A stretch of 64,000 bases of DNA from Vulcanimicrobiota bacterium (GCA_021107945.1 JAIORV010000068.1:1222-65221), one strand, 5' to 3'. Shown: positions 6,424 to 63,068, numbered from the stretch's first letter. Program-made: numbers and translations. The notes: generated from the sequence alone by a model not told the origin.

Positions 6424-7001
6424 AATTATCCTCCGCATCCCTTGTTTTTCATCTGTTCAGTCAGGGTAGCCGAGGGTAGATATCCCCGGCGCAATTCTAA
6501 TCTAAAGAAATTCAAGATGTATGAATGAATACCTTTTCATAAAAAAGCTGTAATATCCGTTTATCGGGATGGGGACATCCCTCCTTTATGGGAAAGGGGA
6601 AAGGGGAGGTGGGAAAGGGGAGGTGGGAAACGAGATCCATTATCCGTCATCCATTTTCCATTATCCGTTTATCGTTATCCGTTTATCGTTATCCGTTTAT
6701 CGTTATCCGTTTATCGGGACGAGGACGTCCCTCCTACAGCTCCGCTCCCCGCTCCGCATAACCCTCTGTGATCTCTGTGTCTTCTGTGGTGAAAAAACAT
6801 ACATCCTGTAGTATCCGTTTATCGGGATGGGGACATCCCTCCTTTATGGGAAAGGGGAAAGGGGAAAGGGGAGGTGGGAAACGAGAGGCGGGAAGCGGGT
6901 CATCCGTTCTCCCCTTTGTGGTCTTTGCGGTGAAAAAAAATGTTATCAAAGATTAGGTCATGTTAGCACAATTCAACACACCACAGCAACATTACACCTA
7001 T

Positions 7002-9995: not shown

Positions 9996-10718
9996 GCTTG
10001 CCTGCCTGAGCAATAAACTATTCACCGCAAATGTCCCTCCTATAAATTTAGAGGCGGGAGGTGAGAGGCGGGAGGTGAGAAGCGGGGAGCGGGATCTGTT
10101 CTGCACCATCTGCCATCATTCATTTTCTTCGTATCTTCGTGATAAAAAAATCTCTGTGGTCTCTGCGATCTCTGCGGTGAAAAAATACGTACATCCTGCA
10201 CTATCCGTTTATCAGGATGGGGACATCCCTCCTGTATGGGAAAGGGGAGGTGGGAAACGAGATCCATTATCCGTCATCCATTTTCCATTATCCGTTTATC
10301 GGGACGAGGACGTCCCTCCTACAGATTCGGGCTGCATTATCCGTTTTCCGAATTCCTCTGTGGTCTTTGCGGTAAAAAACACGTTGGATGGGGACATCCC
10401 TCCTGCAAACGCGAGAAAGGCCTTCCGAAATGACATTCGCTTACGTCCCAATCATTAAATTGTGAAAAAAATCCTTTAAACGGGAAGGTATTTGTGATGT
10501 TGTAAAGAAAGAAAAAGCGATTTTAATTGCCATAATTTCCAGATGGAACCCAGGATATAAAATTCCCAGGGAAATGGCAAGCGATTTGGGGTATGTATAT
10601 TGAAGGTACGGGCTGAAAAACCATGCCGGCATTGTCGGTTCCTAAATTTTTGGATTATGAGAAGTAGCCGAATCTATATCAAGGGTCAATACCCAAAATT
10701 TCTAATAAGAACCAGGGG

Positions 10719-16671: not shown

Positions 16672-17069
16672 TACTGAAGGGAAGCAAGGTCAAGAGCAAA
16701 CTTACCGAGAAAGTGGAAAAAATCAGCGGGCAGAATATATTTGCCTGTTACCAGTGTGGAAAATGTTCGGCCGGATGCCCCATGATCGACTCTATGGATT
16801 ATATGCCGAATCAAGCGATGAAATTGCTGCAAATGGGAGCAGCGGAAGAGATTATCAATTCGAAAACAATGTGGATGTGCGCCTCGTGCCATACATGCTC
16901 GGTGCGATGCCCCCGCGACATCGATCTCTCCGCTGTTATGGAGGCATTAAGACTTATATATCTCAGAACAAATGTCAACAAAGTGGAGCCTTCGCAGATT
17001 CCCGAGGAAGAGTTGAAGGATCTCCCACAGATTGCACTTGTTTGCAATTTTCGGAAGATGACCAGATAA
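16662..17069 (+). CDS. hdrC: heterodisulfide reductase subunit C-like (2x[4Fe-4S])
   Basis: 135 aa; CYQCGKCSAGCP and CASCHTCSVRCP; GGAGGTG SD; 10-nt overlap with mvhD. Confidence 0.8.
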   Translation: MRIILKGSKVKSKLTEKVEKISGQNIFACYQCGKCSAGCPMIDSMDYMPNQAMKLLQMGAAEEIINSKTMWMCASCHTCSVRCPRDIDLSAVMEALRLIYLRTNVNKVEPSQIPEEELKDLPQIALVCNFRKMTR

Positions 17070-17074
17070 CGGAA

Positions 17075-17165
17075 AATGGATAATGGATAATGGAAGATGG
17101 AACTGTAGGAGGGACGTCCCCGTCCCGATGAACGGATAACGGATAACGGAGGACGGATCCAACCT
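17075..17165 (+). repeat. intercistronic composite repeat (GGATAAYGG units plus reverse-complemented GGGACG palindrome module) between hdrC and hdrB
   Basis: ggaaaatggataatggataatggaagatggaactgtaggagggacgtccccgtcccgatgaacggataacggataacggaggacgg; same family as the elements at 2047-2078, 6706-6740, 18841-18882, 37441-37492 and 62918-62975. Confidence 0.75.
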
Positions 17166-18071: not shown

Positions 18072-18814
18072 AAATAATGGAAAAGAATTCGTCAGCAACG
18101 GAAAAAGAAATGAAGGAGAAAAAACCGGCGGAGGTTGAGCAGGCTTTCATAAGTGTTTATATCATGGGGAAAGAACACAGGGTCCCCTTTGGGTTGACAA
18201 TAATGAAAGCGATGGAATATGCCGGTTATCGTTTTGTACGTGGAGCCGGTTGCAGAGCGGGCTTTTGCGGAGCGTGTGCTACTATTTACAGGATGAAGGG
18301 CGATTACAAGCTCGAGACCGCCCTTGCCTGTCAAACCACTGCACTGGACGGGATGTATCTCACCCAGATACCTTTCATGCCTGCAAACAAGTCTGTTTAT
18401 GACATTGAAAAGCTCAATCCGGACATTAACTCGATTCTTCATCTTTATCCCGAAATAGCGCGTTGCGTGAGCTGTAATATGTGCACGCGCTCCTGCCCTC
18501 AGGATCTTGAGGTTATGGATTACATTCAGGCCGCTCTGCGGGGCGACACAGAAGAAGCCGCCAGGCTTTCATTCGACTGCATACAATGCGGACTTTGCAC
18601 TGTGCGCTGTATGGCTGAAATTTCTCATTACCACGTGGGGCAGCTCGCTCGCAGATTGTATGGCAAATATTATTCCCCCACTCCCCGGCATCTTACAGAA
18701 AGGCTCGAGGAGATGGATGAGGGAAAATATGATGAGGCAATGGACGAGCTTGTTGTTATGGATAAGGAAAACTTGAAGAAAAAATACTGGAAACGTGATA
18801 TGGAAGTTAAATAA
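18068..18814 (+). CDS. succinate dehydrogenase/fumarate reductase iron-sulfur subunit-like protein ([2Fe-2S] plus 2x[4Fe-4S] motifs)
   Basis: 248 aa; CRAGFCGAC (plant-type 2Fe-2S), CVSCNMCTRSCP, CIQCGLCTVRC; AAGGAGTATGA SD. Confidence 0.8.
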   Translation: MKIMEKNSSATEKEMKEKKPAEVEQAFISVYIMGKEHRVPFGLTIMKAMEYAGYRFVRGAGCRAGFCGACATIYRMKGDYKLETALACQTTALDGMYLTQIPFMPANKSVYDIEKLNPDINSILHLYPEIARCVSCNMCTRSCPQDLEVMDYIQAALRGDTEEAARLSFDCIQCGLCTVRCMAEISHYHVGQLARRLYGKYYSPTPRHLTERLEEMDEGKYDEAMDELVVMDKENLKKKYWKRDMEVK

Positions 18815-18819
18815 CGGAC

Positions 18820-18950
18820 AACGGAAGCCAGAGGCCGGATCTGTAGGAGGGACGTCCCCGTCCCGATAATCGGTTATCGGAAATTGCAGCTCAAACCTTT
18901 AGGTTTGCCGCTTCTGCTCTGCGGACTCTGCGTTAAATAAAAAAATCGAA
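18820..18950 (+). repeat. intercistronic composite repeat (palindrome module plus heptads CTCTGCG-GA-CTCTGCG-TTAAATAAAAAAA) between the sdhB-like and sdhA-like genes
   Basis: ctgtaggagggacgtccccgtcccgataatcggttatcgg ... cttctgctctgcggactctgcgttaaataaaaaaa. Confidence 0.75.
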
Positions 18951-20797: not shown

Positions 20798-22141
20798 TTA
20801 CAGTTCCAGCAGGTTCTTCAGTTTCCCTTTCAACTCCTCGATGGGAATCCTTTCCTGCACCAGGGTGTCCCTGAACCTGACTGTCACGGCATTATCCTCA
20901 ATTGTGTCAAAATCCACGGTTATACAGAAGGGCGTTCCAACCTCGTCCTGTCTGCGGTATCTCTTGCCGATTGAGCCTTTGATGTCATAATCGGTATAGA
21001 AATCTTTCCTGAGATCCTTGTATATCTTTTCCGCGATCTCCGGAAGGGGTTCCTTTTTAGAGAGCGGTAAGACCGCCGCTTTTATCGGAGCAAGCTTGTT
21101 GCTGAAGCGAAGAACTGTTCTCACGTCTATCCCGCCTTTTGCCGTGGGGGTTTCGTCCTCGTCGTAAGCGTCAACCAGGAATGCCAGAGCGGAGCGATCA
21201 ACACCGGCTGAAGGTTCGATTACAAAAGGTGCTATATGCTCTTTTCTTTCCTCGTCGAAGAATTTCATATCCTTTCCGCTGTCCTTCTCGTGTGCTTTCA
21301 GGTCGTAATCGGTCCTGTTGGCTATGCCCTCAAGCTCCGACCATCCCCAGGGGAATTCATATTCAACGTCGTAGCAGGACAGGGCGTAATGAGCAAGCTC
21401 ATCATCCTCGTGTCGCCGGAGTCTCAGTTTTTCTTTTTTGATTCCCAGATCCGCATACCACTTCATGCGAGTCTCGAGCCATTTTTGATGGCATTCTTCC
21501 GACTGCTCCGGGTATGTGAAATATTCCAATTCCATCATCTCGAACTCCCTTGTGCGGAAAGTGAATTTGCCCGGCGTAATCTCGTTTCTGAATGCCTTGC
21601 CTATCTGTGCAATTCCAAAGGGGAGTTTCTTTCTTGATACCGTCTGAACATTCTTAAAATTGACAAATATTCCCTGAGCCGTCTCGGGGCGCAGATGGAC
21701 CACCGATGATGTATCCTCAACCGCTCCCATAAATGTCTTGAACATCAGATTGAAAAGCCTGGCGTCTGTAAGTTCGCCTCCGCATTCGGGGCACTTGTCG
21801 CCCTCGACGTGATCCGCCCTGAATCTGAGCTTACATTCCTTACAGTCAACCATTGGGTCGGTGAAGCTTTCCACATGCCCCGATGCCACCCAGACCTGCG
21901 GGTGCATCAAAATGGAGGAGTCGAGTCCCACAACATCATCCCTCTCCTGGACATTTGATTTCCACCAGGAGTTTTTAACGTTATTTTTCAACAGCACTCC
22001 CATGGGACCGTAATCATAACAGGAATTTAACCCGCCATATATTTCTGATGATTGAAATATAAAACCTCTCCTCTTACAGAGGGAGACAATTTTCTCCATC
22101 CTTTCCCGCCCGGGAGTCACTTTCTTTTTTACTTTAGACAT
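20798..22141 (-). CDS. glyQS: glycine--tRNA ligase, alpha2 (archaeal/eukaryote-like) type
   Basis: 447 aa; class II synthetase motifs (FRNEITPGKFTFRTREFEMMELEYF motif 2 region; GIANRTDYDL); Zn-ribbon-like CKECKLRF...CPECGG insertion; anticodon-binding C-terminus. Confidence 0.9.
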   Translation of the reverse strand: MSKVKKKVTPGRERMEKIVSLCKRRGFIFQSSEIYGGLNSCYDYGPMGVLLKNNVKNSWWKSNVQERDDVVGLDSSILMHPQVWVASGHVESFTDPMVDCKECKLRFRADHVEGDKCPECGGELTDARLFNLMFKTFMGAVEDTSSVVHLRPETAQGIFVNFKNVQTVSRKKLPFGIAQIGKAFRNEITPGKFTFRTREFEMMELEYFTYPEQSEECHQKWLETRMKWYADLGIKKEKLRLRRHEDDELAHYALSCYDVEYEFPWGWSELEGIANRTDYDLKAHEKDSGKDMKFFDEERKEHIAPFVIEPSAGVDRSALAFLVDAYDEDETPTAKGGIDVRTVLRFSNKLAPIKAAVLPLSKKEPLPEIAEKIYKDLRKDFYTDYDIKGSIGKRYRRQDEVGTPFCITVDFDTIEDNAVTVRFRDTLVQERIPIEELKGKLKNLLEL

Positions 22142-22450
22142 ATATTAATACCTCCAAATTTGAATGTTTTATATCTTGATTTATCCGGTTGGATATTGCC
22201 ATAATCTTTACTCTATATGATAAAGTTGTTTTTTTCTTCTTTTTCATATCAAAACCTTTTTTTACCACTCATCATAGGAGAAGTTTCCAGCACCTGTATT
22301 CGTAGAAATGCCACTTATAGAGGTGGGTTAGTCTGCCTTTATTCAAATAAATGCTCTGTGAATTCTGTGGTGAATGGTCGCCATAATTCCTCTTTACAGT
22401 CCATTTTTCTCATAGTCCTCACAATATATACTATAAGTGTTTTCATAAAA

Positions 22451-24766
22451 TCACTGATTACATGATTTAATAAACTCATAGATTTTCTCAGTCAGGTCTT
22501 TTGATTCATCAGTCATATTGTCATAAGTTATGAATTCAATGGCTTTCTTGCAGAAATCAGACTTCTCTTTTAATGTTCCCGAATCGGTAGCATATTTATA
22601 TTCTCCTTTTTTTCTGGTAGTTTTTATATTGCTATCAATGAATCTACCCAGAGGTTCTGTTTTATAGCTTTCATTCCAACTCTCTTCAAAATCCTTCAAT
22701 ATTATCCCAGTACCATCTTCATTTTTAAAGGCTTTAAGCGCTTTTATTATAACTTGAGATGATAATAAGTTCTCTATTTCTCTGACCTTAAGACAATAAT
22801 AATTGTCATTCAAGTTTTTCTTGAGTTCTTCTTTTCTTTCAAGTTTAGAGTTTCCATCCTCATCAGTTATGAGCAGAATATCCCTGCTAATTCGGTCATA
22901 GCTAATTGGATTTTCCTCTTTATTCAAAAATGACCAATGTGTAATATTACTACCAGCATACTCAATGAAAGAAAAATGTGTATCTTCTTTGTAAGTTTTT
23001 TCTTTCTTTTTTTCCTTTTGCTTTTGATATTCCTCGAAGTATTTCCTTATATATAACCTGTCGGTAATACCTTCCACCCAAATTGTACAATTTGACAGAA
23101 ATACCGAGGAACTTCTGACTCCCAATTGTCTAAGCACCACATCATCTCCCGTTGAGACGACTTCTATAGCGAAATTCTCAACAGATCGGTTTTCAACTTT
23201 ATTACTATCTACCGGCGACATCGAATATATAGAAATATTGTCATAATCAAAAGTCAGATCCAAAAAATGATTCGAATGTGTTGTAATAAAAAATTGATGA
23301 TTAAATCCTTCGCTTAGCATGATATCAATAAGTTTTCTTTGATATCCTGGATGAATATACATTTCTGGTTCTTCAATAAAGAACCAACAAGATTTGTCGC
23401 GATGCTTGAACATTGGAAAAGTCAGAATTATAATTGATTGCATCCCGTCCCCTAAGTCATAAATTCTTCTATCAGGAAGATCTCCAATTTTCACGTTAAG
23501 CACATCACTATCCATCCTGGGTATAAGTACAACTGGCTTATCAAATATATTCTTGCCAAGAAATTCCTCGAATTCTCTGATTATCTCCCTTTCTTTTTGT
23601 TCGCCCAATAGCATATCTCTTATTTCATCATAAAATCCCAAACCTGTAATTATATCAACACCACTTCTTGCAATTTCATCTTTGAATATTGCTTCAATCA
23701 AAAGTCGACCAAATTTTCTCTGTCCTTGTTTATTCAAATTTCCAGGAACCTTTTTATGAAGCCTTAAAGTTTCTCCTTTTAGCCTAATTTCGGAAAAATC
23801 GGTATTATTGTAAATATTATGCAAAGTTTCATTCATTCTATGAATAATTTTTTCCTTTTGATTATTGGAGAGAAAAATATAATCTGAGCATTCTTCTATC
23901 GTATTTTTTATAATGGGGTTGTTTTCAGTAAGAACTTCCCACAATCTGCGATGAGCAGAAGAGTTGTGTTCCCTCACCTTATTAATAAAGCCCGACCAAT
24001 CCAAAATATCATCTACTTGAAAATCTGAAGGCATGTCCTTGAAATAATCATTTCTTGTCCTATTGAGGTATACATCCTCTTTAATCTCACGGTATTTTCC
24101 TCTATTTATTCCTATATTTAATAATTCTTTGACTTCCGGATGTAAAATATCCTCAAGAGATACTTTGAAACCACGAAGTCCCCTAAGGGTGGGTATATAT
24201 ATTTTCTTATAGAGGTTATAGTTATCCTGATATTCAGATAATCTATCAAAGAATTTACTTCCCATATTTTCGAGATATTCTATCCATTGGCCACTTGTAA
24301 TTTCTATCGGATTGCCATTAGCGAGGAACAAAGAATTACAATTCTCATATTTTCTCAAATCTCTTAATAGGGATGCCAACTGTATGATTTCAAAGAGCCT
24401 CGTCCGTGCAATAGCCATTTTTCTTGGCACCAACCAAAACTCATCTTGTGCAATATAAGCAGCCCCCAACTGTAAGGGATTTTTCCCTTGAGCCGGACTC
24501 TTTCTATTCGCGAAATCGTAAAAGTAACTTTTAAATTCATTAATATCCCTTATTAACTGCTTTTGAGTCTCTTCTCCATATTCCGTCTTGTACTTATCGT
24601 TATTGGCAATCTTTCTTAACAATCTGCTTTTGCCTGAATTATTTGGCCCAACAAATATATTTATTCTTGATAATTTCTCTATTGATCTTAATGGAGAATA
24701 GTTTCCTTTTTCTAATCTATGGAATTCTGTAAGATTGAATGTTTCTGTTAATAGATTATCGACCAT
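22451..24766 (-). CDS. OLD-family-like ATPase-Toprim nuclease (ABC/AAA_15-type ATPase plus C-terminal Toprim); candidate anti-phage defence protein
   Basis: 771 aa; Walker A INIFVGPNNSGKS; Q-loop/signature-like LGDGMQS; Walker B WFFIEEPEMYIHP; H-loop FITTHSNHF; C-terminal Toprim-like IWVEGITD (conserved Glu) and ILLITDEDGN (DxD); lone gene flanked by repeats. Confidence 0.7.
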   Translation of the reverse strand: MVDNLLTETFNLTEFHRLEKGNYSPLRSIEKLSRINIFVGPNNSGKSRLLRKIANNDKYKTEYGEETQKQLIRDINEFKSYFYDFANRKSPAQGKNPLQLGAAYIAQDEFWLVPRKMAIARTRLFEIIQLASLLRDLRKYENCNSLFLANGNPIEITSGQWIEYLENMGSKFFDRLSEYQDNYNLYKKIYIPTLRGLRGFKVSLEDILHPEVKELLNIGINRGKYREIKEDVYLNRTRNDYFKDMPSDFQVDDILDWSGFINKVREHNSSAHRRLWEVLTENNPIIKNTIEECSDYIFLSNNQKEKIIHRMNETLHNIYNNTDFSEIRLKGETLRLHKKVPGNLNKQGQRKFGRLLIEAIFKDEIARSGVDIITGLGFYDEIRDMLLGEQKEREIIREFEEFLGKNIFDKPVVLIPRMDSDVLNVKIGDLPDRRIYDLGDGMQSIIILTFPMFKHRDKSCWFFIEEPEMYIHPGYQRKLIDIMLSEGFNHQFFITTHSNHFLDLTFDYDNISIYSMSPVDSNKVENRSVENFAIEVVSTGDDVVLRQLGVRSSSVFLSNCTIWVEGITDRLYIRKYFEEYQKQKEKKKEKTYKEDTHFSFIEYAGSNITHWSFLNKEENPISYDRISRDILLITDEDGNSKLERKEELKKNLNDNYYCLKVREIENLLSSQVIIKALKAFKNEDGTGIILKDFEESWNESYKTEPLGRFIDSNIKTTRKKGEYKYATDSGTLKEKSDFCKKAIEFITYDNMTDESKDLTEKIYEFIKSCNQ

Positions 24767-24848
24767 GTAATTTACCCTCCAAGAAATCCTATGGAATTTT
24801 AATATTACTACAGGAATTACGCATTTCCAAGAAAGAAATGTGCGAAAC

Positions 24849-25175
24849 TGTCATCCTGAGCGAAATACGATTTTTACCTTTTCTTAATAAACCCTGGCAA
24901 GAATGAGTTTTACTTGCCTCCGATGTCTTCCACAGCGAAGGATCTCTTCCCCGGGAGTCTCCTTAAAAATAATCCTCATTCTAATTGAGATTTGCTCCTT
25001 ATATACCATTGGGGTCGAGATTCTTCGCTATGTAAATCCTCGAATATAAGAGAATCCCATCTTTGAGAAAGTCATTGGATTAAAGTAATTCTTTCTTGTA
25101 TCGCTCAGAATGACAATTTGGATGCCTTCATTTAATAAGAAAGCCCATGCTCAGAATGACAATTGCGTAAGTCCA
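24849..25175 (+). repeat. interspersed ~330-bp repeat, copy 1 (contains GTCATYCTGAGCG / CGCTCAGAATGAC and GAGATTCTTCGC sub-motifs)
   Basis: About 75% identity over ~330 bp to 43600-43962, in the same orientation (e.g. ttacttgcctccgatgtcttccacagcgaaggatctc versus ttacttacttccgatgtcttccacagcgaaggatctc). Confidence 0.75.
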
Positions 25176-25319
25176 ATTATTAATGACTCCGTGTTCTTCG
25201 TGTCTTCGTGGTAATTATCAGCTATCCGACTTTTGACCTCCATTTTCTGGCCTCCGTAATCCATATTCCTTTATCTTTTTTCCCTATACGTGGTCTTTGC
25301 GATGAATAGACACTTGCCT

Positions 25320-26192
25320 TTATGGGGTTATATTGATCCTCACCGTCTTCTTGCCCATTGCAATAATCTCGTAGCCTACATCTGAAGAGGCATCCCATGT
25401 GAACTTTTCCGGGAGGAACCCATAAACCGTTATATCAACCGCTCCCGTGGTTTTGAATATCGCCGCCGGCACATATATATCACGGTCTGTCGTGGTTTTG
25501 CCTGTTATGAATGTGTATATCGAAAGGGGATCCGCCCAGTTCAAGCTTCGAAAATCATCGGAGCTCCATGCCACGGGGATAATACCCTCTTCAGTGGCCT
25601 CGACATATTCCACAACAACAAAGTACCTGTAATCGCCGTTGTCGGATGACCATTTTATCTGAAAGGATCTACCGGCCTCGATTTCATCGCCTTCCTCCGG
25701 GCTATCGATTCTTATCTCGTTTGGATATTCGAAATCGTTCGTCATTGTGTTGAATTCGTCATCATTTACAAATGTATAAAGTCCGGTGGGGCTTTCCGGC
25801 GCGTTGGACCCGGAAAAATCACGGTAAAACCTGATCTGCAAGGGATTGTAGAGAGTATGGTTTGATATCCCGGAAGCCTGGTTTACCTGAACACCGTAAA
25901 AATAATCCTCAACTCTTGCGTTGAATGAGAATGGTGACATCTCGTAATTTCTCTCGCCGGGAGGGGCGACCTCGTAATCACCGGTCAATTCGTTATTTGA
26001 AGCCACGCCGCATCTGACACTCTCATCGGATTGTACAATAACAAGGTTGTAAAAATCGGATATGGGTGTATCCGTGGGTGTGGGGTCGGAGCTTGAGCCG
26101 CCGCCACCACCACCGCCACATCCCAACATACATGCAAATGCGAATAAAGACATAACTAAAACTATAGAGACTATGTAAAATATTTTTTTCAT
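25320..26192 (-). CDS. hypothetical lipoprotein (lipobox MLGC followed by Gly/Ser linker)
   Basis: 290 aa; signal peptide MKKIFYIVSIVLVMSLFAFACMLGC then GGGGGGGSSSDPTPTD low-complexity linker. Confidence 0.6.
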   Translation of the reverse strand: MKKIFYIVSIVLVMSLFAFACMLGCGGGGGGGSSSDPTPTDTPISDFYNLVIVQSDESVRCGVASNNELTGDYEVAPPGERNYEMSPFSFNARVEDYFYGVQVNQASGISNHTLYNPLQIRFYRDFSGSNAPESPTGLYTFVNDDEFNTMTNDFEYPNEIRIDSPEEGDEIEAGRSFQIKWSSDNGDYRYFVVVEYVEATEEGIIPVAWSSDDFRSLNWADPLSIYTFITGKTTTDRDIYVPAAIFKTTGAVDITVYGFLPEKFTWDASSDVGYEIIAMGKKTVRINITP

Positions 26193-26312
26193 TAGAAATC
26201 CACCTCCGTGAAGTTCTTTTCTAAATAAGGAATAAAAATCCCTTCAAATGGGGAAATTAGGAATTTAGCCTCTAAGGAAATTAGGAAATAAGGAGAACGG
26301 AAAGCGGAGGTA

Positions 26313-26510
26313 TTTTTCACCACGGAGCCACGGAGGGCACGAAGATTTTTTTTACTCCGTGTTCTTCGTGACTTCGTGGTGGATTGCGGAGTACGGAAAT
26401 GTTTTTTCACCACAGAGGACGCAGAGGACACAGAGGACGCAGAGGTTTCCCGGATAATGGAAGATGGAGAACGGATTACGGATCCCACTTCCCACTTCCC
26501 ATTTCCCTAA
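26313..26510. repeat. cluster of three heptad arrays plus a C-rich (G-quadruplex complement) module
   Basis: ttttcaccacggagccacggagggcacgaag / ctccgtgttcttcgtgacttcgtggtgg / ttttttcaccacagaggacgcagaggacacagaggacgcagagg / ggataatggaagatggagaacggattacggatcccacttcccacttcccatttccc. Confidence 0.8.
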
Positions 26511-26602
26511 ATTGATACAGGTAATAATTAGAAAAAGGGGGATTGAGGGCATAGAAAAAGAACAATGTAAAGTTGAAAACATTATTCGCGGGAGATGATT
26601 TT

Positions 26603-27874
26603 ATGAACCGTACAAGGACAATCCTGACATTGCTTGCAGTAGCGATATTTTCTCTTATTGTAATTGGCACATCTTTCAGTGCTCCGGTGATTCAATTCGA
26701 TAACTATGAGCGATCCACATGGGATATAGGAGACATGGAATGTATTGCGGTTGTTGATATGGTGGGGCACAATCCCGGTATCGGCGAAGACGTCTCCGAC
26801 CTGATTGCTGAGAGGATCAAACAGCATAAATTCCTCAGGGTGCTTGATCGAAAAAAGACAAACCAAACTCTTGAATCGGCGGGGATACATATCCACGGGA
26901 TACCCGATATCAGGCAGGCAAAAAGAATATGCGAAGCTCTTAATGTTGACGGTGTGATATACGGCTCAATGGACGGCAATTTCACAACGAGCAGGAGATA
27001 CAGGAGAAATTACCGGTATTATTACAACAACGATGACAACAGGAGGAGAAGGCGCCGGGTCGATTACGAGGTTCCATACATAAACAGATCGGGATTCGCA
27101 AGGTTGAAGCTCTTCCTGTATTCCAGGGATAAAGATAAGATAATCGGAGAGATGGAGAATAAGAAGTCGTTTTCGAAGGATTACGATCTGTATTACGGCG
27201 ATTATTATCAGTCGAATTATCCTTCCGACAGCCGGATGCTGATGGATCTTGTTGATGCTATCGTAAAAAAGGCGGTTTATAAATTTACTCCCCATTTTGT
27301 AAGGCGCAGGAGAGAATTATCCAACAAGAACAATTCCGGCACAAAACTTGCCATGGAGACGAAATGGGAAGAAGCTGTCGTGATATGGAAAAAACAATTA
27401 CAGGAAAACCCCGGGGATTTCACCGCTTTGAAAAACCTCGGAATTTATAACGAGATGGAAGGAAACACAACCAGGGCAATCGATTGTTACATGCGCGCTC
27501 GCAAGATAAAGCCTGGTGACAAAAAACTCGTAATATATTTAGGTCAGGCAAGGAATGCCGATCTCACCGGGAAGCCCTTGAAAGCGATTAAAGTTGCCGA
27601 CGAGAAAAACCTGGTGAAGATAGCGAAAATCGAGAGTAACGAGAGGGTATTTATCCTTGGCGGCGAGGAAAAAGGAATAAAGACCGGAGACGAGTTTCCT
27701 ATCGTCAGAAAGATTCCGGTTTTTAATGATGATGTAATAAAGATCGTGGGACGAGCCTATTGCCGCATCGGCACATTGAAGATAAACAAGGTCTTCGAGG
27801 GCGCAAGCATGGGAACAATTACCGATGTGGCGAAGGATTATAAGATTGAAGTAGGAGATAGCGTGGTTAAGTAG
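26603..27874 (+). CDS. secreted protein with CsgG/LpoB-like N-terminal region, Arg-rich low-complexity segment and a TPR-like segment
   Basis: Start moved from 26573 to 26603 (GGGAG SD); signal/TM TILTLLAVAIFSLIVIGTSFSA; TPR-like WEEAVVIWKKQLQENPGDFTALKNLGIYNEMEGNTTRAIDCYMRARKIKP. Confidence 0.5.
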   Translation: MNRTRTILTLLAVAIFSLIVIGTSFSAPVIQFDNYERSTWDIGDMECIAVVDMVGHNPGIGEDVSDLIAERIKQHKFLRVLDRKKTNQTLESAGIHIHGIPDIRQAKRICEALNVDGVIYGSMDGNFTTSRRYRRNYRYYYNNDDNRRRRRRVDYEVPYINRSGFARLKLFLYSRDKDKIIGEMENKKSFSKDYDLYYGDYYQSNYPSDSRMLMDLVDAIVKKAVYKFTPHFVRRRRELSNKNNSGTKLAMETKWEEAVVIWKKQLQENPGDFTALKNLGIYNEMEGNTTRAIDCYMRARKIKPGDKKLVIYLGQARNADLTGKPLKAIKVADEKNLVKIAKIESNERVFILGGEEKGIKTGDEFPIVRKIPVFNDDVIKIVGRAYCRIGTLKINKVFEGASMGTITDVAKDYKIEVGDSVVK

Positions 27875-29995: not shown

Positions 29996-31384
29996 TCACT
30001 GGACCTTGCCATCGGGCTTTTTTTCTAACGGTTTACCTTTGATCTCGGGCAATTTTTCTAACGGTTTACCTTCGCCACCGGGCTTTTTTTCCAACGGTTT
30101 ACCTTTGATCTCGGGCAATTTTTCGAACTGTTTTCCTTCGCCACCGGGCATTTTTTTAAACTGTTTACCTTCGCCACCGGGCATCTTTTCGAACGGTTTT
30201 CCTTCGCCACCGGGCATCTTTTCGAACTGTTTTCCTTTACCACCGGGCATTTTTTCGAACGGCTTTCCTTCCACCGGGGTTGTTAACGGGGGAAGCATCT
30301 GCGTATTACTGCCTGGTGGGGGCATAGAATTACTACCACCTTGATTCATACCTTCTTGTGGCGAAACCATGGGGCGTTTCTGATAGAATTTTATGTCCTT
30401 GATTACGACGCCGGCAACATTTTTCTGCGGTATTTTCCCGGCATGGGCATTCTTCTTTATAACACTAAATAATTGTTGGGCAACGCCCCCCCAATCAGCT
30501 TCAACATTGGCTTTTAAGATACCTCCCTTTATAATAAAAGGTATGGTCATAAGTTCGTCACCAAATGAAACCATGCTGACATCTTTCATATTTAGCTCAT
30601 CAAGAACTTTATAAACATCAAGTTGTGCCACTTCACTCATAACAACAATGCCTTTAACATCCCGGTATTTTTTCAAGATACTCCCAATTTTTTTATATAG
30701 CATACGCTTCTCTTTATTTATAGAAAGCATTCTTCCGGGGTCGAGGCTCAACTTTTCTCCTGCTTTGATTTCACATACCGCTACAAGGTTTAGTTTTTTG
30801 TCTTTCTTTACTATTTTTTTGAAATTCTTTGCCATCTTCTGATTTAATGGAACCTCATCATGGATTACAAGTACCTTCGCCCCCTTGCCAAGCTTTTTTG
30901 CAAGGTAATCCTCCACTGCTTTAGCCAAATTGCTATAATCAACAACTAAAGTATAAGTCGAATTCTTCTGGATGGAGGTTCTGGAAATAACGAAAACGGG
31001 AACATTGACAGACTTAGTAACATTTATGCATTCTTCCATCTGTTCTGGCGGTAAATCAACCAGACAAATGGCATCGATACCTATATCGACGAGCTGATGG
31101 ATAATTCTCCCGGAACCCATACCCCCTTCTTTTCCCAGGTATATATCAATAATCGCTACATCGGCGTTACTCAATGCAAAATCGCTTATCCTATTCTTTA
31201 AAGTCTGAGGGGAATCAAACGAATAGATCATGGCCACCTTTACTTTCCCCTGCTTAGAAGTGGGGTCCGAAGTTGATTTTTTTGGATCGGTAACATTCCC
31301 TTTCTGTGGTTGACATGAAGTTAAAACCAAAATGAAAAATACTGCCAGTATGACGCAAATAGAAGTTGAATGCCTCTTAAACAC
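29996..31384 (-). CDS. lipoprotein with periplasmic-binding-protein-like (sugar-binding/LacI-type) domain and C-terminal 12-aa tandem repeats (GKPFEKMPGGEG)x~9
   Basis: 462 aa; lipobox LTSC; PBP-like core; 36-bp DNA tandem repeats at 30000-30295. Confidence 0.65.
   Translation of the reverse strand: MFKRHSTSICVILAVFFILVLTSCQPQKGNVTDPKKSTSDPTSKQGKVKVAMIYSFDSPQTLKNRISDFALSNADVAIIDIYLGKEGGMGSGRIIHQLVDIGIDAICLVDLPPEQMEECINVTKSVNVPVFVISRTSIQKNSTYTLVVDYSNLAKAVEDYLAKKLGKGAKVLVIHDEVPLNQKMAKNFKKIVKKDKKLNLVAVCEIKAGEKLSLDPGRMLSINKEKRMLYKKIGSILKKYRDVKGIVVMSEVAQLDVYKVLDELNMKDVSMVSFGDELMTIPFIIKGGILKANVEADWGGVAQQLFSVIKKNAHAGKIPQKNVAGVVIKDIKFYQKRPMVSPQEGMNQGGSNSMPPPGSNTQMLPPLTTPVEGKPFEKMPGGKGKQFEKMPGGEGKPFEKMPGGEGKQFKKMPGGEGKQFEKLPEIKGKPLEKKPGGEGKPLEKLPEIKGKPLEKKPDGKVQ
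30000..30295. repeat. intragenic 36-bp tandem repeat (~8-9 copies) encoding a GKPFEKMPGGEG-type repeat
   Basis: ggtttacctttgatctcgggcaatttttctaac / ggtttaccttcgccaccgggctttttttccaac ... periodic 36-mers with point variants. Confidence 0.85.
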
Positions 31385-35303: not shown

Positions 35304-35424
35304 GGAATCAAGAGTGGAGTAAGGAGAAGAGACTATCGAACAAGTGGTTTTTCACCGCAGAGATCGTGGAGTTCGCAGAGGATAACCGGAATTTTGAGGT
35401 TTTTCGATACCCTCAGAAGAGGGT

Positions 35425-35520
35425 TCAAATTTCCATCTTCCATCTTCCATCTTCTATCTTCTATCTTCCATCTTCTATCTTCTATCTTCTATCTTCTTTC
35501 TTCCATCTTCTATCTTCCCA
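35425..35520. repeat. heptamer microsatellite (ATCTTCY)n, ~13 copies
   Basis: catcttccatcttctatcttctatcttccatcttctatcttctatcttctatcttctttcttccatcttctatcttccc; related to GGAAGATGGA modules in the composite repeats. Confidence 0.85.
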
Positions 35521-37126
35521 CTTTTATCGGTATGTTTATCTCGAATAGCCTGTGAAACGGGAAAGAGATGGGACCGATCCGGATTATTGCTTTCTTTTCA
35601 TATTTATTGCCGGGAATGTTTGCCGTGAACTGAAATACAATTCGCTCTCCCGGCGTTTTACCTATTTCACCGGGATCGAGGGGGATATAGTTTATTTTGC
35701 CGGAGCCCGGAATATTGCTTGCCCCACTTTCCGCTCCGGGTTCTCCTTCTTTTAAAACCCTATATTTAATCCCCAGATCATTTAAATTCTCCATAATTTT
35801 TTTGTTTGTAAGATCAAGAGCTTTTTTCTCTTCGTCAATACTCATCCTGTGATAGCTATATGCAGGTATCCCTGTCTTTCCCGGAAGTTTGAGGTGGATC
35901 CCGTCAAGGTATATAAAGTCCGTTATCATTCTCTCGTATAAAAATGCAATTTTCTCCTTGTTCGCTTTCCTGTCGGGGCAATACAGGGAGGCGCATCCTT
36001 CGCAAAGCGCAGTGCCGAGGGTGTTTGTGCCCATTCCCCAGTTTGCATAACCGGAAAGCCTGTTGAACATTCCTCTTTTGTACAATGCCCTGAAGAATTC
36101 CGCCTGCTGCTTGCGATTCGACAGGTCTCCCACCGTGACAGGCTTTTCTTTTAGCAGATTTTCTATTCTGTCTAAAAAATCATCAATCGATTTTTCCCCT
36201 GACAGGTGATTCACTGCAAGAATAAGGTCGGCTTTTTCAGGTTCATAGACAACATCCGCGCCGATTGAATCGACCATATCCAGAGCGACGGACATTATGG
36301 GGGTTGCACTGTAATGATCAATCTTCATCCTGGATGAGGTTATATCCCGATATTCGATATAGACTTTCAGTCTTTTTTTCCTTTTCTCATTCAGGAACCG
36401 GGTAAAAAGAACCATCGCCGATTCATCAATTCCAAGGCGGATCCTGTCAACATCCGAGATGAGGACTTTTTTTCCGATGCCGGCTCTCTTAATATAATCC
36501 TTCATCTTCACGATTTCCCTGACCTGATTGGATATATCTGTAACATCGTCGCCGGAGACGCTGAGGAAGTCTATGACGCCCTCCTTCACATATTCCAGCA
36601 ACTTCATGTTTGCGGACATATTACGTTGCCTGTGCTGAGCTTCTTTCCGGGGGATGCTTGTGAACACTAGGATTTTGAGTTGAGGGTATTTTTTTCTTAT
36701 TATCTTGATGAGGGCTACTGAGTTTAAAGCCTGCCTCGTTGAAACTGAGCTTTTTCTTGATTCCAGAAGTCCTCCATAGATGAGGGAATCGGCGGATATA
36801 ATCAGTAGCTTACAATCATCGTCAAGGTTGTGTTTGAGCCAGAACCAGACATTCCATTGCTTTTTGAATGCGTCCTCATATTTGCTGATGTTTCCCATAA
36901 TCTCACGGGGAGGCACGACGGGATCCCATCCGCATATTTTCGCGATATATTGAACATATTCATATGTCTGATTTCGGCTGTCCAGTGGGATTATTACAAC
37001 CTTTTTGGAATTGGATTGAGCCGGGAAAGAGGATGTCGTCAGAAATGAAATTAATATGAGTGTGAAAAAGAATATTAAAAAGACACGCTTTGTTCGGAAT
37101 ATTGAATTATTATTTGTTTTATTCAT
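35510..37126 (-). CDS. secreted hypothetical protein (possibly DUF4127-like)
   Basis: Track ORF runs to 37237, but the first 37 codons overlie the three-hairpin repeat element 37172-37300. The internal Met (MNKTNNNSIFRTKRVFLIFFFTLILISFL, signal peptide) is the likely start; no strong SD, so the start is uncertain. Confidence 0.55.
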   Translation of the reverse strand: MNKTNNNSIFRTKRVFLIFFFTLILISFLTTSSFPAQSNSKKVVIIPLDSRNQTYEYVQYIAKICGWDPVVPPREIMGNISKYEDAFKKQWNVWFWLKHNLDDDCKLLIISADSLIYGGLLESRKSSVSTRQALNSVALIKIIRKKYPQLKILVFTSIPRKEAQHRQRNMSANMKLLEYVKEGVIDFLSVSGDDVTDISNQVREIVKMKDYIKRAGIGKKVLISDVDRIRLGIDESAMVLFTRFLNEKRKKRLKVYIEYRDITSSRMKIDHYSATPIMSVALDMVDSIGADVVYEPEKADLILAVNHLSGEKSIDDFLDRIENLLKEKPVTVGDLSNRKQQAEFFRALYKRGMFNRLSGYANWGMGTNTLGTALCEGCASLYCPDRKANKEKIAFLYERMITDFIYLDGIHLKLPGKTGIPAYSYHRMSIDEEKKALDLTNKKIMENLNDLGIKYRVLKEGEPGAESGASNIPGSGKINYIPLDPGEIGKTPGERIVFQFTANIPGNKYEKKAIIRIGPISFPFHRLFEINIPIKVGR

Positions 37127-37357: not shown

Positions 37358-37492
37358 ATCACAGAGGACACAGAGGACACAGAGATATTAATATTTCCCC
37401 CCCGATTATCTTCCGCGAACTCTGCGTTAAAAAAACACTTCCGCCTTCCGTCACCATTATCGGGACGGGGACGTCCCTCCTACAGTTCTGAC
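37358..37492 (+). repeat. composite repeat: heptads (CACAGAG-GA)x3, CTCTGCGTTAAAAAAA, palindrome module ATTATCGGGACGGGGACGTCCCTCCTACAG
   Basis: Read directly. Confidence 0.8.
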
Positions 37493-37613
37493 CTCCGACC
37501 TCCGGCATCCGTGTCTGTTATCCTTTTCCTCATTTCCTAATTTCCTTAGAGGTAGAATTCCTCATCTCCTTATCTTCCTGTATTCCTTATCCCGGATCCC
37601 GGCCTCCGTTTTC

Positions 37614-43423: not shown

Positions 43424-43962
43424 GTCATTTCTTCACGAAGCTTTCCCTCGATCGGAGCGAAGTATCTCCCGTAAGAGAGTCGCCCACGCTGTCATTCCTT
43501 CACGGAGCCTGCCCTCGAGCGGAGCGAAGGGTTCAAGGACAGGCTCTGAGCGGAAAAAGATCATCTTACTTTATTCGATCAATCCCGGTAAGAATGTATT
43601 TTACTTACTTCCGATGTCTTCCACAGCGAAGGATCTCCTCTCCCGGGTTCTTCTCACAACAATCATTCTTATTAATACTTGCTCCTCCATGCCACGGGGG
43701 TTGAGATTCTTCGCTGTGTTAATCCTCGTAGATCAAGGTAATCCCGTCTTTGAGAAAATCATAGAAGTAAAGTTATTCTCTCGTGATCCGCTCAGAATGA
43801 CATGCTCAAGTCTTTCTTGATCCGCTCAGAAGGACAAGAAGCCTTGGGAGACTGAATAATTACGCCTGAACCTTTGACAAAAAGTAAATGCACCCAAATG
43901 AATTATTAAAACGGCTTGGTTAAGAGATTCTTCGCGGGCGCTCAGAATGACAATGCGTAAGT
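43424..43962 (+). repeat. interspersed repeat, copy 2 (extended; includes two tandem ~60-bp GTCATTYCTTCACGRAGC...CGGAGCGAAG sub-repeats)
   Basis: Aligns with 24849-25175; the track ORF 43353..43820 across it is judged spurious because the two copies are not conserved in a common reading frame. Confidence 0.75.
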
Positions 43963-47830: not shown

Positions 47831-47935
47831 AATTCCTCCTATATGGGAAAGGGGAAAGGGGACATGGGAAACGGGATCCGACCTCCGACTCACGGATCCC
47901 GCTTCTCGTCTCTCACCTCTCGCCTCCATTCTATG

Positions 47936-50134: not shown

Positions 50135-50290
50135 AATCACGGAGGCCGCGGAGGATAACCGGAGGAAAAATATTGATATCTCTGAGGTAGATGGAAGTGG
50201 GAAATGGGAAGTGGGAAATAACTGGGATTTTAAGCTTTTTCGACACCCTCACATCCCGTCTCCCGCCTCTCGCCTCCCGTTTCCCGCTTC
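50135..50290. repeat. composite repeat: heptads ATCACGGAG-GC-CGCGGAG-GATAACCGGAGG and a C-rich complement of the G-tract module
   Basis: gatggaagtgggaaatgggaagtgggaaataactggg ... cccgtctcccgcctctcgcctcccgtttcccgcttctcgtc. Confidence 0.75.
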
Positions 50291-50297
50291 TCGTCTA

Positions 50298-57337: not shown

Positions 57338-57520
57338 ATACCACTAAATTAAGGCAGGAGTGACGCATCTTTAAAGCGGAATGGCATGAGAACATCGATA
57401 AAACCCATAGGGCATCTCACATTGTTATTATAATCCAGCGCCAAAACCCACATCACCCATGTGTTGACTCACTAATTCATGGGCATTGCCTATGGGAGGG
57501 ATTTCCCAACCCCGATAAAT

Positions 57521-57947
57521 TAGTGTCTGTCCCTAATTAACAAAATGGCGTCTGTCCCTGTCCCTATTAGTGAATTAATTAGGGACAGACACCAATTATT
57601 TTCCCCTCCGGATATGCCCACAGGTTTTGGGTAATATGATGTATAATGGGAAAAACCTATCGTTGCAATCCTTGTAATTCTTGTTAATAAAAATAGTGTC
57701 TGTCCCTAATTAACAAAATGGCGTCTGTCCCTGTCCCTATTAGTGAATTAATTAGGGACAGACACCAATTATTTTCCCCTCCGGATATGCCCACAGGTTT
57801 TGGGTAATATGATGTATAATGGGAAAAACCTATCGTCGCAATCCCTGCAATTCTTGTTAACAAAAATAGTGTCTGTCCCTAATTAACAAAATGGTGTCTG
57901 TCCCTGTCCCTGTCCCTGTTAATGAATTTATTAGGGACAGACACCAA
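57521..57947 (+). repeat. 173-bp tandem array, 2.5 units. Each unit has a perfect 18-bp inverted repeat GTGTCTGTCCCTAATTAA ... TTAATTAGGGACAGACAC (34-nt spacer carrying a third half-site) followed by an extended -10 element TGTATAAT
   Basis: Units start at 57521, 57694 and 57867; inter-unit segments ~97% identical; TGnTATAAT at 57640-57647 and 57813-57820. Confidence 0.85.
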
Positions 57948-58133
57948 TAGGGGGAACTGAACATTTACCTTCGAATTGGGTGTAAGATAAATATATGAAA
58001 ATACTTTTTGCAAGGAAGGATAAACGCGTACCTCTTAAAGAATAAAACTGCCTGTTGATTCTGTAAAACATATAATTCTATAATTCGGAAGTATTTAATA
58101 ACACTTTTAAAACCGCACCTGGAGAAAAATGTA

Positions 58134-62871: not shown

Positions 62872-63068
62872 CTTTTCACCACAGAGGCCGCAGAGGTATT
62901 CGGGGAATGGAACCCTGATCTGTAGGAGGGACGTCCTCGTCCCGATAAACGGATACGCAGGACGGATGTTTTATTTCACCGCAGAGATCACTGAAATAAA
63001 TTCAGGGCAGGCTCAGAGCACGGAGTTTTTTGATTTAAATTCTTCGTGTCCTTCTCGTCTTCGTGGTT
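62872..63068. repeat. composite repeat cluster (heptads TTTTCACC-ACAGAGG-CCGCAGAGG; reverse-complemented palindrome module; TTTCACCGCAGAGATCAC; TTCTTCGTG-TCCTTCTCG-TCTTCGTGG)
   Basis: Read directly, in the convergent gap after pgk. Confidence 0.75.

Follow-up and report, generated by a model that had tools for sequence, protein, structure and literature searches.

To our knowledge, Class 1 is the least understood class of the OLD nucleases, with in vivo data only for P2 Old, Vc OLD and YbjD. The class is defined by context, as a standalone gene (PMC10568477, PMC12392090), and its members defend on their own (PMC12392090, PMC12445682, PMC13261556): Vc OLD introduces nicks into DNA and prevents ICP1 from replicating (PMC12392090), P2 Old, once it has hydrolysed ATP, cleaves tRNAs in the anticodon stem (PMC12445682) and needs both its ATPase and its Toprim residues for function in vivo, and the Thermus scotoductus protein (Ts OLD) has a dimerisation domain (PMC10568477). 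The gene described here belongs to a 64,000-nucleotide (nt) stretch of a Vulcanimicrobiota bacterium genome (JAIORV010000068.1:1222-65221, hereafter the window), where it lies between glyQS, encoding glycyl-tRNA synthetase (GlyRS), and a gene for a lipoprotein of 290 amino acids (aa). Its 771-aa product combines an ATP-binding cassette (ABC) ATPase with a Toprim nuclease domain and is probably a single-protein anti-phage OLD nuclease, Class 1 by its standalone context, that was horizontally acquired into a variable defence slot between the two neighbouring genes.

As with P2 Old, Ts OLD, Vc OLD and Escherichia coli YbjD, the protein stands alone, has an N-terminal ABC ATPase with helical insertions followed by a C-terminal Toprim and helical region with conserved Glu and DxD residues and apparent counterparts of the ExE-type and Lys residues, and has relatives carried by prophages, plasmids and islets. 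It differs from these Class 1 proteins in its length (771 aa vs 528-586 aa), to which an extra 125-aa insertion contributes, in its low identity to P2 Old (~23%), in belonging to a clade with invariant motifs of its own, and in matching the PADLOC 'Old' model at only 44 bits.

Domain architecture and catalytic residues

The open reading frame (ORF) extends through 771 codons without interruption (Table 1), and an identical protein (P0001) is deposited at NCBI as 'AAA family ATPase [Ca. Eremiobacteraeota]' on an 81-kb contig, which bears out the 771-aa protein first predicted from the sequence of the window. A GGAGG ribosome-binding site can be read 9 nt 5' of the ATG, and the gene has the same orientation as the adjoining glyQS. 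An intact ABC ATPase head, interrupted by helical regions, is followed by an intact Toprim and helical catalytic domain of the OLD type.

The ATPase region matches the Pfam families AAA_21 (5e-17) and AAA_15 (1.2e-14) above threshold and contains the Walker A, Walker B, signature-like and H-loop motifs of an OLD-family ABC ATPase. Invariance was judged in alignments of 25 and of 100 relatives. Walker A is GPNNSGKS (aa 40-47), with G40, N42 and S44-G45-K46-S47 invariant; the signature-like motif is LGDGMQS (aa 438-444), with G439 and G441 invariant and L438, D440 and Q443 nearly so; Walker B and the D-loop are found in FFIEEPEMYIHP (aa 462-473), where FFIEEPE (aa 462-468) includes the invariant E465 and E466; and the H-loop is FITTHS (aa 493-498, TTHS at 495-498), with H497-S498 invariant. 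A variable helical stretch (approximately aa 60-185) and the motif YIPTLRGLR (aa 190-198) are located between Walker A and the remaining ATPase motifs.

The C-terminal region carries the Toprim motifs VEGITD (aa 564-569) and ITDEDGN (aa 633-639), including the invariant Glu (E565) and DxD (D635-x-D637) that characterize an OLD Toprim, and the proposed catalytic positions E565, D569, D635, D637, E663, E665 and K735, along with N666 of the REIEN motif, are invariant in both sets of relatives. Every motif quoted in the original prediction (GPNNSGKS, FFIEEPEMYIHP, FITTHS, VEGITD and ITDEDGN) was therefore recovered in invariant columns of the family. The order and spacing of the seven catalytic positions are comparable to those of the Burkholderia OLD (Bp OLD) catalytic set of E400, E404, D455, D457, T506, E508 and K562 (PMC6755086), a correspondence drawn by sequence-pattern mapping as opposed to structural superposition, and they form the proposed set of a two-metal active site that appears to be intact. 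The Pfam OLD-like_TOPRIM family (PF20469) matches aa 556-611 below threshold (18.7 bits vs a cut-off of 23.2).

An AlphaFold2 (AF2) model of aa 505-771, built from the 100-sequence alignment, has a predicted local distance difference test (pLDDT) score of 82 and a predicted template modelling score of 0.77. The top five PDB fold matches of this model are the crystal structures of the Xanthomonas and Burkholderia OLD C-terminal (Toprim and helical) regions, with a probability of 1.00, E=2.5e-4 to 1e-3 and template modelling (TM) scores of 0.42/0.52; Eco8 OLD, GajA, Ts OLD and the retron-Eco2 Toprim rank next among the matches of the OLD type. A BFVD fold search with the Toprim model returned nothing significant.

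The extra length of the protein is mainly the result of an insertion of ~125 aa (aa 243-368), with a smaller one near aa 200-228. The larger insertion is missing in 23 of the 25 aligned relatives and is common to only one other known cluster (P0002; 814 aa, 42% identity full-length), which was also the only match when the insertion alone was used in BLAST (E=0.005). Internal duplication was considered as its origin and rejected, as BLAST shows no self-similarity. The insertion is predicted to be helical (AF2, pLDDT <50), and its most likely role is that of an enlarged module for oligomerisation or sensing. The protein is, as originally noted, larger than classical Class 1 OLD proteins, though its size comes from a lineage-specific insertion in a clade of typically ~625-aa proteins and is not a new architecture of the whole family.

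Comparison with OLD proteins and defence profiles

The family profile aligns with phage P2 Old (from NC_001895) at an hhalign probability of 97.1 (E=6.7e-11), over residues 433-761 of the query and 258-572 of P2 Old, a span that includes the signature motif, Walker B, the H-loop, the Toprim Glu and the C-terminal helices. In the PDB sequence profile search, the best match was the Class 1 OLD protein of T. scotoductus (6p74, E=1.3e-10), followed by PtuA, AriA, GajA and retron ATPases. Combined with the Pfam ATPase matches and the OLD C-terminal fold matches, the alignment to P2 Old supports the OLD-family ATPase-Toprim architecture proposed at the outset. The full-length AF2 model has a pLDDT of 66, falling to <50 across most of aa 90-157 and 244-367, and its best Foldseek matches, all with low TM-scores, are to retron-Eco8 OLD, retron I-A PtuA, SMC/Rad50 heads, GajA and Ts OLD.

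Matches of the 771-aa protein to PADLOC models are weak and partial (AriAB 69 bits, AriA 67, GajA 65, NsnB 55, AbiLi 49 and Old), and across the 25-member sample AriA, NsnB, Old, AriAB and GajA all fall within a similar weak range. NCBIfam provided only far-sub-threshold matches to PtuA and MADS3, and PHROGs only families of unknown function (phrog_4747 at 2e-22). The best single PADLOC match, to the AriAB fusion model (8.4e-20), with AriA models scoring similarly, corresponds to an alternative in which the gene is a fused PARIS (AriA-AriB, Class 4 OLD), whose ATPase would sense Ocr-like anti-restriction proteins and release or activate a DUF4435 Toprim that cleaves tRNA-Lys. Merged PARIS does have the same order in one polypeptide, an ABC ATPase of the AAA_15/AAA_21 type and then a Toprim effector, and the Toprim-only segment matches a second AriAB model (5.7e-5). 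However, the AriAB match is confined to profile positions 335-537 of 694 and is no better than those to GajA, AriA, Old or NsnB; the AriA match (220-304 of 304 positions) is likewise partial, and the best AriA score across the 25-member sample (1.2e-26) is generic ABC-core similarity. For the Toprim-only segment, GajA (8e-8) is ahead of AriAB. The DUF4435 signature of the AriB effector was detected in none of the 25 members at E<=0.1, while 16 of the 25 weakly match the OLD-like Toprim PF20469. No AriB chain occurs among the top 50 PDB fold matches of the aa 505-771 model, which are led by OLD, retron OLD and GajA, and AriA enters the PDB profile search only at E about 1e-5, behind Ts OLD. A PARIS fusion is highly improbable on these grounds, and the original description of the protein as a PARIS-like fused AriA-AriB was not sustained.

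Distribution and genomic context of the clade

A phmmer search of 1.84 billion cluster representatives identified 1207 proteins at E<=1e-30 (clusters at 50% identity), with a median length of 625 aa among 255 retrieved members. Named members originate from the Bacillus cereus group, Paenibacillus, Clostridioides, Halobacillus and Methanosarcina and are annotated as "AAA family ATPase", "ATP-dependent nuclease" or "predicted ATP-dependent endonuclease of OLD family". Identity to the query is typically 45-50% over aa 362-771, against ~32% over the N-terminal lobe, and YIPTLRGLR, NITHWSF and CxWVEGITD are invariant motifs peculiar to the clade.

The members occur in a range of mobile and variable contexts, including near a resolvase on a Bacillus chromosome, near phage portal genes in another Eremiobacteraeota metagenome-assembled genome (MAG), near an integrase in Methanosarcina, amid restriction, SocA and DUF4365 genes on a Bacillus tropicus plasmid, and in a capsule locus. 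In Clostridioides sp. JAGWCY010000001.1 (L128, 3554-8004) the gene directly follows an XhlA/holin/amidase lysis cassette at the end of a prophage, which is a typical moron position. Approximately 16 IMG/VR viral contigs have near-full-length or long matches, and in P2/186-like Vibrio prophages the family gene is bordered by the CI repressor on one side (8 loci) and the integrase on the other (5 loci), the cargo position of the lysogenic operon. A standalone mobile defence gene would be expected to occur in such contexts, and the clade fits Class 1 OLD as defined by context: in the slot and in 22 family loci, the gene stands alone in variable neighbourhoods without a helicase, reverse transcriptase or split Toprim. 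No conserved neighbour gene family was found across the 22 loci, and no conserved small upstream ORF, with the exception of two closely related prophages.

Among the viral members, Vibrio phage 10N.286.45.F8_PE002 (L084, 4377-7585) has a 36%-identical protein between cI and int. In two Vibrio prophage loci (L084; L097, 7295-8239), an overlapping DUF3427 gene comes after the family member and may be a partner specific to this sub-clade.

It should also be considered that the gene is one part of a multi-gene system with a distant or missed partner, be it a Class 3 retron, a Gabija-type helicase or a small adaptor. The best full-length fold match is the OLD effector of retron-Eco8 (type I-B), a protein of similar size (743 aa) and overall fold (Foldseek E=2.7e-8); a Vibrio prophage relative that precedes the DUF3427 gene, a neighbour also present at a second locus, is annotated with a retron I-B ATPase-Toprim model; and a structured element lies just upstream of the OLD gene. 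Gabija GajA (Class 2) has the same ATPase-Toprim architecture, is the best PADLOC match of the Toprim segment, and the Class 2 OLD C-terminal structures are the top folds. However, the TM-score to the retron-Eco8 protein is low (0.18), and that match therefore reflects the shared OLD fold only, while the GajA profile matches are partial and do not exceed 65 bits. An ORF survey of the slot and the adjoining genes revealed no helicase or reverse transcriptase gene, no gajB (UvrD/PcrA/Rep-like helicase) adjoins the gene, which has glyQS downstream and the lipoprotein gene upstream, and no such helicase is present in the 22 family loci. No msr-msd RNA is found near the gene, Rfam having zero matches, retron or other, in the whole window, and small ORFs sought in the two flanks of the gene yielded none that were convincing. 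As to the structured element, it is one copy of an interspersed repeat that recurs 18.7 kb away beside unrelated genes. The retron reading, which had the Eco8 fold match and the Vibrio annotation in its favour, was rejected for want of a reverse transcriptase ORF or an Rfam RNA match, and dependence on a partner of any kind has little likelihood. The verdict is that the protein is neither a fused PARIS nor a component of Gabija or of a retron, and the original view of a lone gene without a partner helicase holds, with the OLD gene the only one in its slot.

A variable slot between the lipoprotein gene and glyQS

GlyRS relatives at 80-92% identity were found, and the best long related contig (L086; JGI 3300033141, Ga0366833_1001368; GlyRS 89% identical) is colinear with the window through a periplasmic binding protein gene, a GH57 gene, the 290-aa lipoprotein gene (82% aa identity), a cargo gene and glyQS. 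Nucleotide homology ends at window position 25332 and restarts at 22141, the glyQS ATG, and therefore the entire interval between the two core genes differs. The cargo in L086 (5746-7893) is a single 715-aa gene with a guanine-plus-cytosine (GC) content of 0.29-0.35 and the same orientation as the OLD gene, and encodes a near-full-length homologue of PifA, the abortive-infection KAP NTPase of the F plasmid (PADLOC 7.1e-89, profile positions 6-702 of 720). PifA belongs to an unrelated family, a KAP P-loop NTPase without a Toprim domain, but as a lone low-GC gene in the identical slot and orientation its homologue is a positionally equivalent defence cargo. Because a PifA homologue occupies the slot in L086, the slot is variable and not a region of conserved synteny, and in this one colinear comparison it behaves as a variable defence hotspot.

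In three relatives at a greater distance (GlyRS 80-85%), glyQS is preceded by an alcohol dehydrogenase gene and the OLD gene is absent, and the contig with the 92%-identical GlyRS stops 165 bp upstream of glyQS, placing the slot outside the contig. A scan of genome contigs with GlyRS gave a best relative at 66% identity, which was without synteny information, and scans of metagenome contigs with the lipoprotein and its alignment found no relatives; lipoprotein homologues at 61-65% identity occur in unrelated contexts and provided no further examples of the slot. Searches for attachment-site (att) or target-site-duplication repeats flanking the cargo in the window and in L086 gave chance-level matches only.

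Along the OLD gene GC is 0.31-0.36 (about 33%) vs 0.43-0.50 (about 46%) for glyQS and the lipoprotein gene. This low GC, the turnover of the slot and the mobile contexts of the family suggest that the gene was horizontally acquired, and exchange could plausibly have proceeded by recombination within the core genes on either side. The originally proposed acquired islet without conserved synteny is in keeping with these observations, with the only relative that has the same flanks carrying the PifA homologue instead.

The genomic setting also bears on whether the protein could be an ATPase-nickase with a housekeeping function or one in chromosome maintenance, comparable to RecF/SbcC or to the archaeal OLD class Cran1 (Class 5), which has a housekeeping role in the cell cycle (PMC12796447) and shows that such a function is possible for OLD-type proteins. 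Consistent with this alternative, the gene adjoins the essential glyQS in the same orientation, weak SMC_N matches occur in the 771-aa protein and in 11 of the 25 members, and SMC and Rad50 heads are among the fold matches. Conversely, its GC is 13 points under the host level, it is absent from five related glyQS loci (one of them on the contig ending 165 bp upstream of glyQS), with PifA in the colinear one, and the family is patchy over Firmicutes, archaea and MAGs and is found on prophages and plasmids. The OLD-type Toprim nuclease residues are also intact. A housekeeping role is thus the most improbable of the alternatives considered, and a horizontally acquired, single-protein defence nuclease is the preferred interpretation of the locus.

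A second indel is located nearby. The window has a 433-aa DUF6340/FlgT_C/TPR gene (26573-27874) between the lipoprotein gene and the GH57 gene, and at the same position L086 has only ~780 bp with a 69-aa ORF.

Repeats and other features of the window

Table 1. Features of the OLD gene and its slot (window positions; a dot marks features without an assigned strand).
Feature	Position	Strand	Remarks
771-aa standalone OLD-family protein, ABC ATPase and Toprim nuclease	22451..24766	-	Stop codon counted in coordinates
ABC-type ATPase region, aa 1-503	23257..24766	-	AAA_15 match aa 31-501; invariant columns
Lineage-specific helical insertion, ~125 aa, aa 243-368	23663..24040	-	Between the RTRNDYF and ITGLGFY blocks of the ATPase
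C-terminal OLD-type Toprim and helical catalytic region, aa 505-771	22454..23254	-	AF2 model; invariant residues
5' leader of the OLD gene	24767..24848	-	GGAGG ribosome-binding site; weak sigma-70-like TTGGAA-17-TAATAT, 8/12, below scan threshold
AT-rich 3' flank of the islet, up to the glyQS start codon	22142..22450	.	Without repeat block or credible ORF
Interspersed element like a miniature inverted-repeat transposable element (MITE), 265 bp, between the OLD and lipoprotein genes	24849..25115	.	14-nt terminal inverted repeats
Rest of the slot, to the lipoprotein stop codon	25116..25319	.	Solo terminal-repeat unit 25148-25161; degenerate heptad-like stretch 25190-25286

The OLD gene is separated from the glyQS start by 310 bp downstream and from the lipoprotein stop by 554 bp upstream (24767-25319). 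Promoter and terminator scans gave nothing above shuffled expectation, and no tRNA genes were detected in the window. The element upstream of the gene has terminal inverted repeats CGCTCAGGATGACA and CGCTCAGAATGACA and internal palindromes, and folds well beyond shuffled sequence on both strands (z about -5). Its second copy, at 43546-43802, is ~80% identical, and solo end units of the element are found at 25148, 43823 and 43939. The copies adjoin unrelated genes, and the element is a MITE-like interspersed repeat and not the boundary of the islet. The original picture of a repeat-flanked islet applies to the upstream side, with this interspersed repeat (~265 bp and not ~330 bp) and the heptad-like stretch, but not to the downstream side: neither Tandem Repeats Finder nor a repeat finder detected a repeat block in 22142-22451, where a single TTATCCG unit is visible.

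The 'heptad blocks' of the original prediction are composite intergenic repeats, which occur at 1925-2100, 6576-6760, 10042-10380, 17065-17160, 18813-18886, 26252-26507, 35410-35535, 37456-37591, 47831-47915, 50178-50293 and 62880-62960. In these, arrays of 7/14-nt units (GGGAAAG, ATCCATT, TTATCCG, TTCCATC) flank the palindromic core TTATCGGGACGrGGACGTCCCTCCTACAG in both orientations. Two tandem repeats of other kinds are also present in the window. Inside the ORF at 29996..31384 (-), a 33-nt unit is repeated in 8.5 copies (30003-30278) and encodes an 11-residue KPFEKMPGGEG-like unit at the C-terminus of a periplasmic-binding-protein homologue, and at 57517-57948 a 173-bp unit occurs in 2.5 copies of 94-97% identity, with internal inverted repeats around TAGGGACAGACAC.

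Proposed mechanism and implications

By analogy with characterised OLD proteins, the protein would form a homo-oligomer through its helical insertions and would be auto-inhibited in uninfected cells. A phage-derived cue would alter the ATP-bound or hydrolysis state of the ABC heads, and the altered state would license the Toprim active site for two-metal cleavage of nucleic acid, with E565, D569, D635, D637, E663 and E665 as putative metal ligands and K735 stabilising the transition state. Cutting of nucleic acid would stop the phage from replicating, through abortive infection or a replication block, and might kill the cell. Judged from its relatives, the substrate may be either DNA, which Vc OLD, Ts OLD and Bp OLD nick or degrade, or tRNA, the target of P2 Old and PARIS AriB, with DNA slightly favoured.

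Several points weigh against the interpretation of this gene as an acquired anti-phage nuclease. The defence role is suggested by homology, context and patchy distribution, and the housekeeping role of Cran1 means that OLD architecture alone is no proof of defence. In sequence the protein resembles characterised OLD proteins only distantly (~23% identity to P2 Old, with PF20469 sub-threshold), and no strong full-length PADLOC match was obtained for any of the 25 members, AriA at 1.2e-26 being the best. The full-length model is of low confidence (pLDDT 66, and <50 in the insertion), and the hotspot argument derives from a single colinear relative.

A further possibility, tentative and on balance unlikely, is that the ~625-aa clade is a functionally distinct and widespread single-gene OLD defence family that is missed by current profiles, in which the 771-814-aa sub-lineage of this protein and P0002 gained a new helical sensor or oligomerisation module. 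Should this be the case, the trigger or substrate specificity of the sub-lineage would be unlike that of P2 Old, Vc OLD, GajA or PARIS.

The protein marks a large, uncharacterised clade with members in Firmicutes, archaea and uncultured phyla, borne by prophages and plasmids and without a strong PADLOC model. The clade is a sensible target for experimental characterisation, for which the Bacillus orthologues would be the easiest. And with an OLD gene in one genome and a PifA gene in another, the slot between the lipoprotein gene and glyQS offers a small, clean example of defence-hotspot turnover in an uncultured Eremiobacterota-like lineage.

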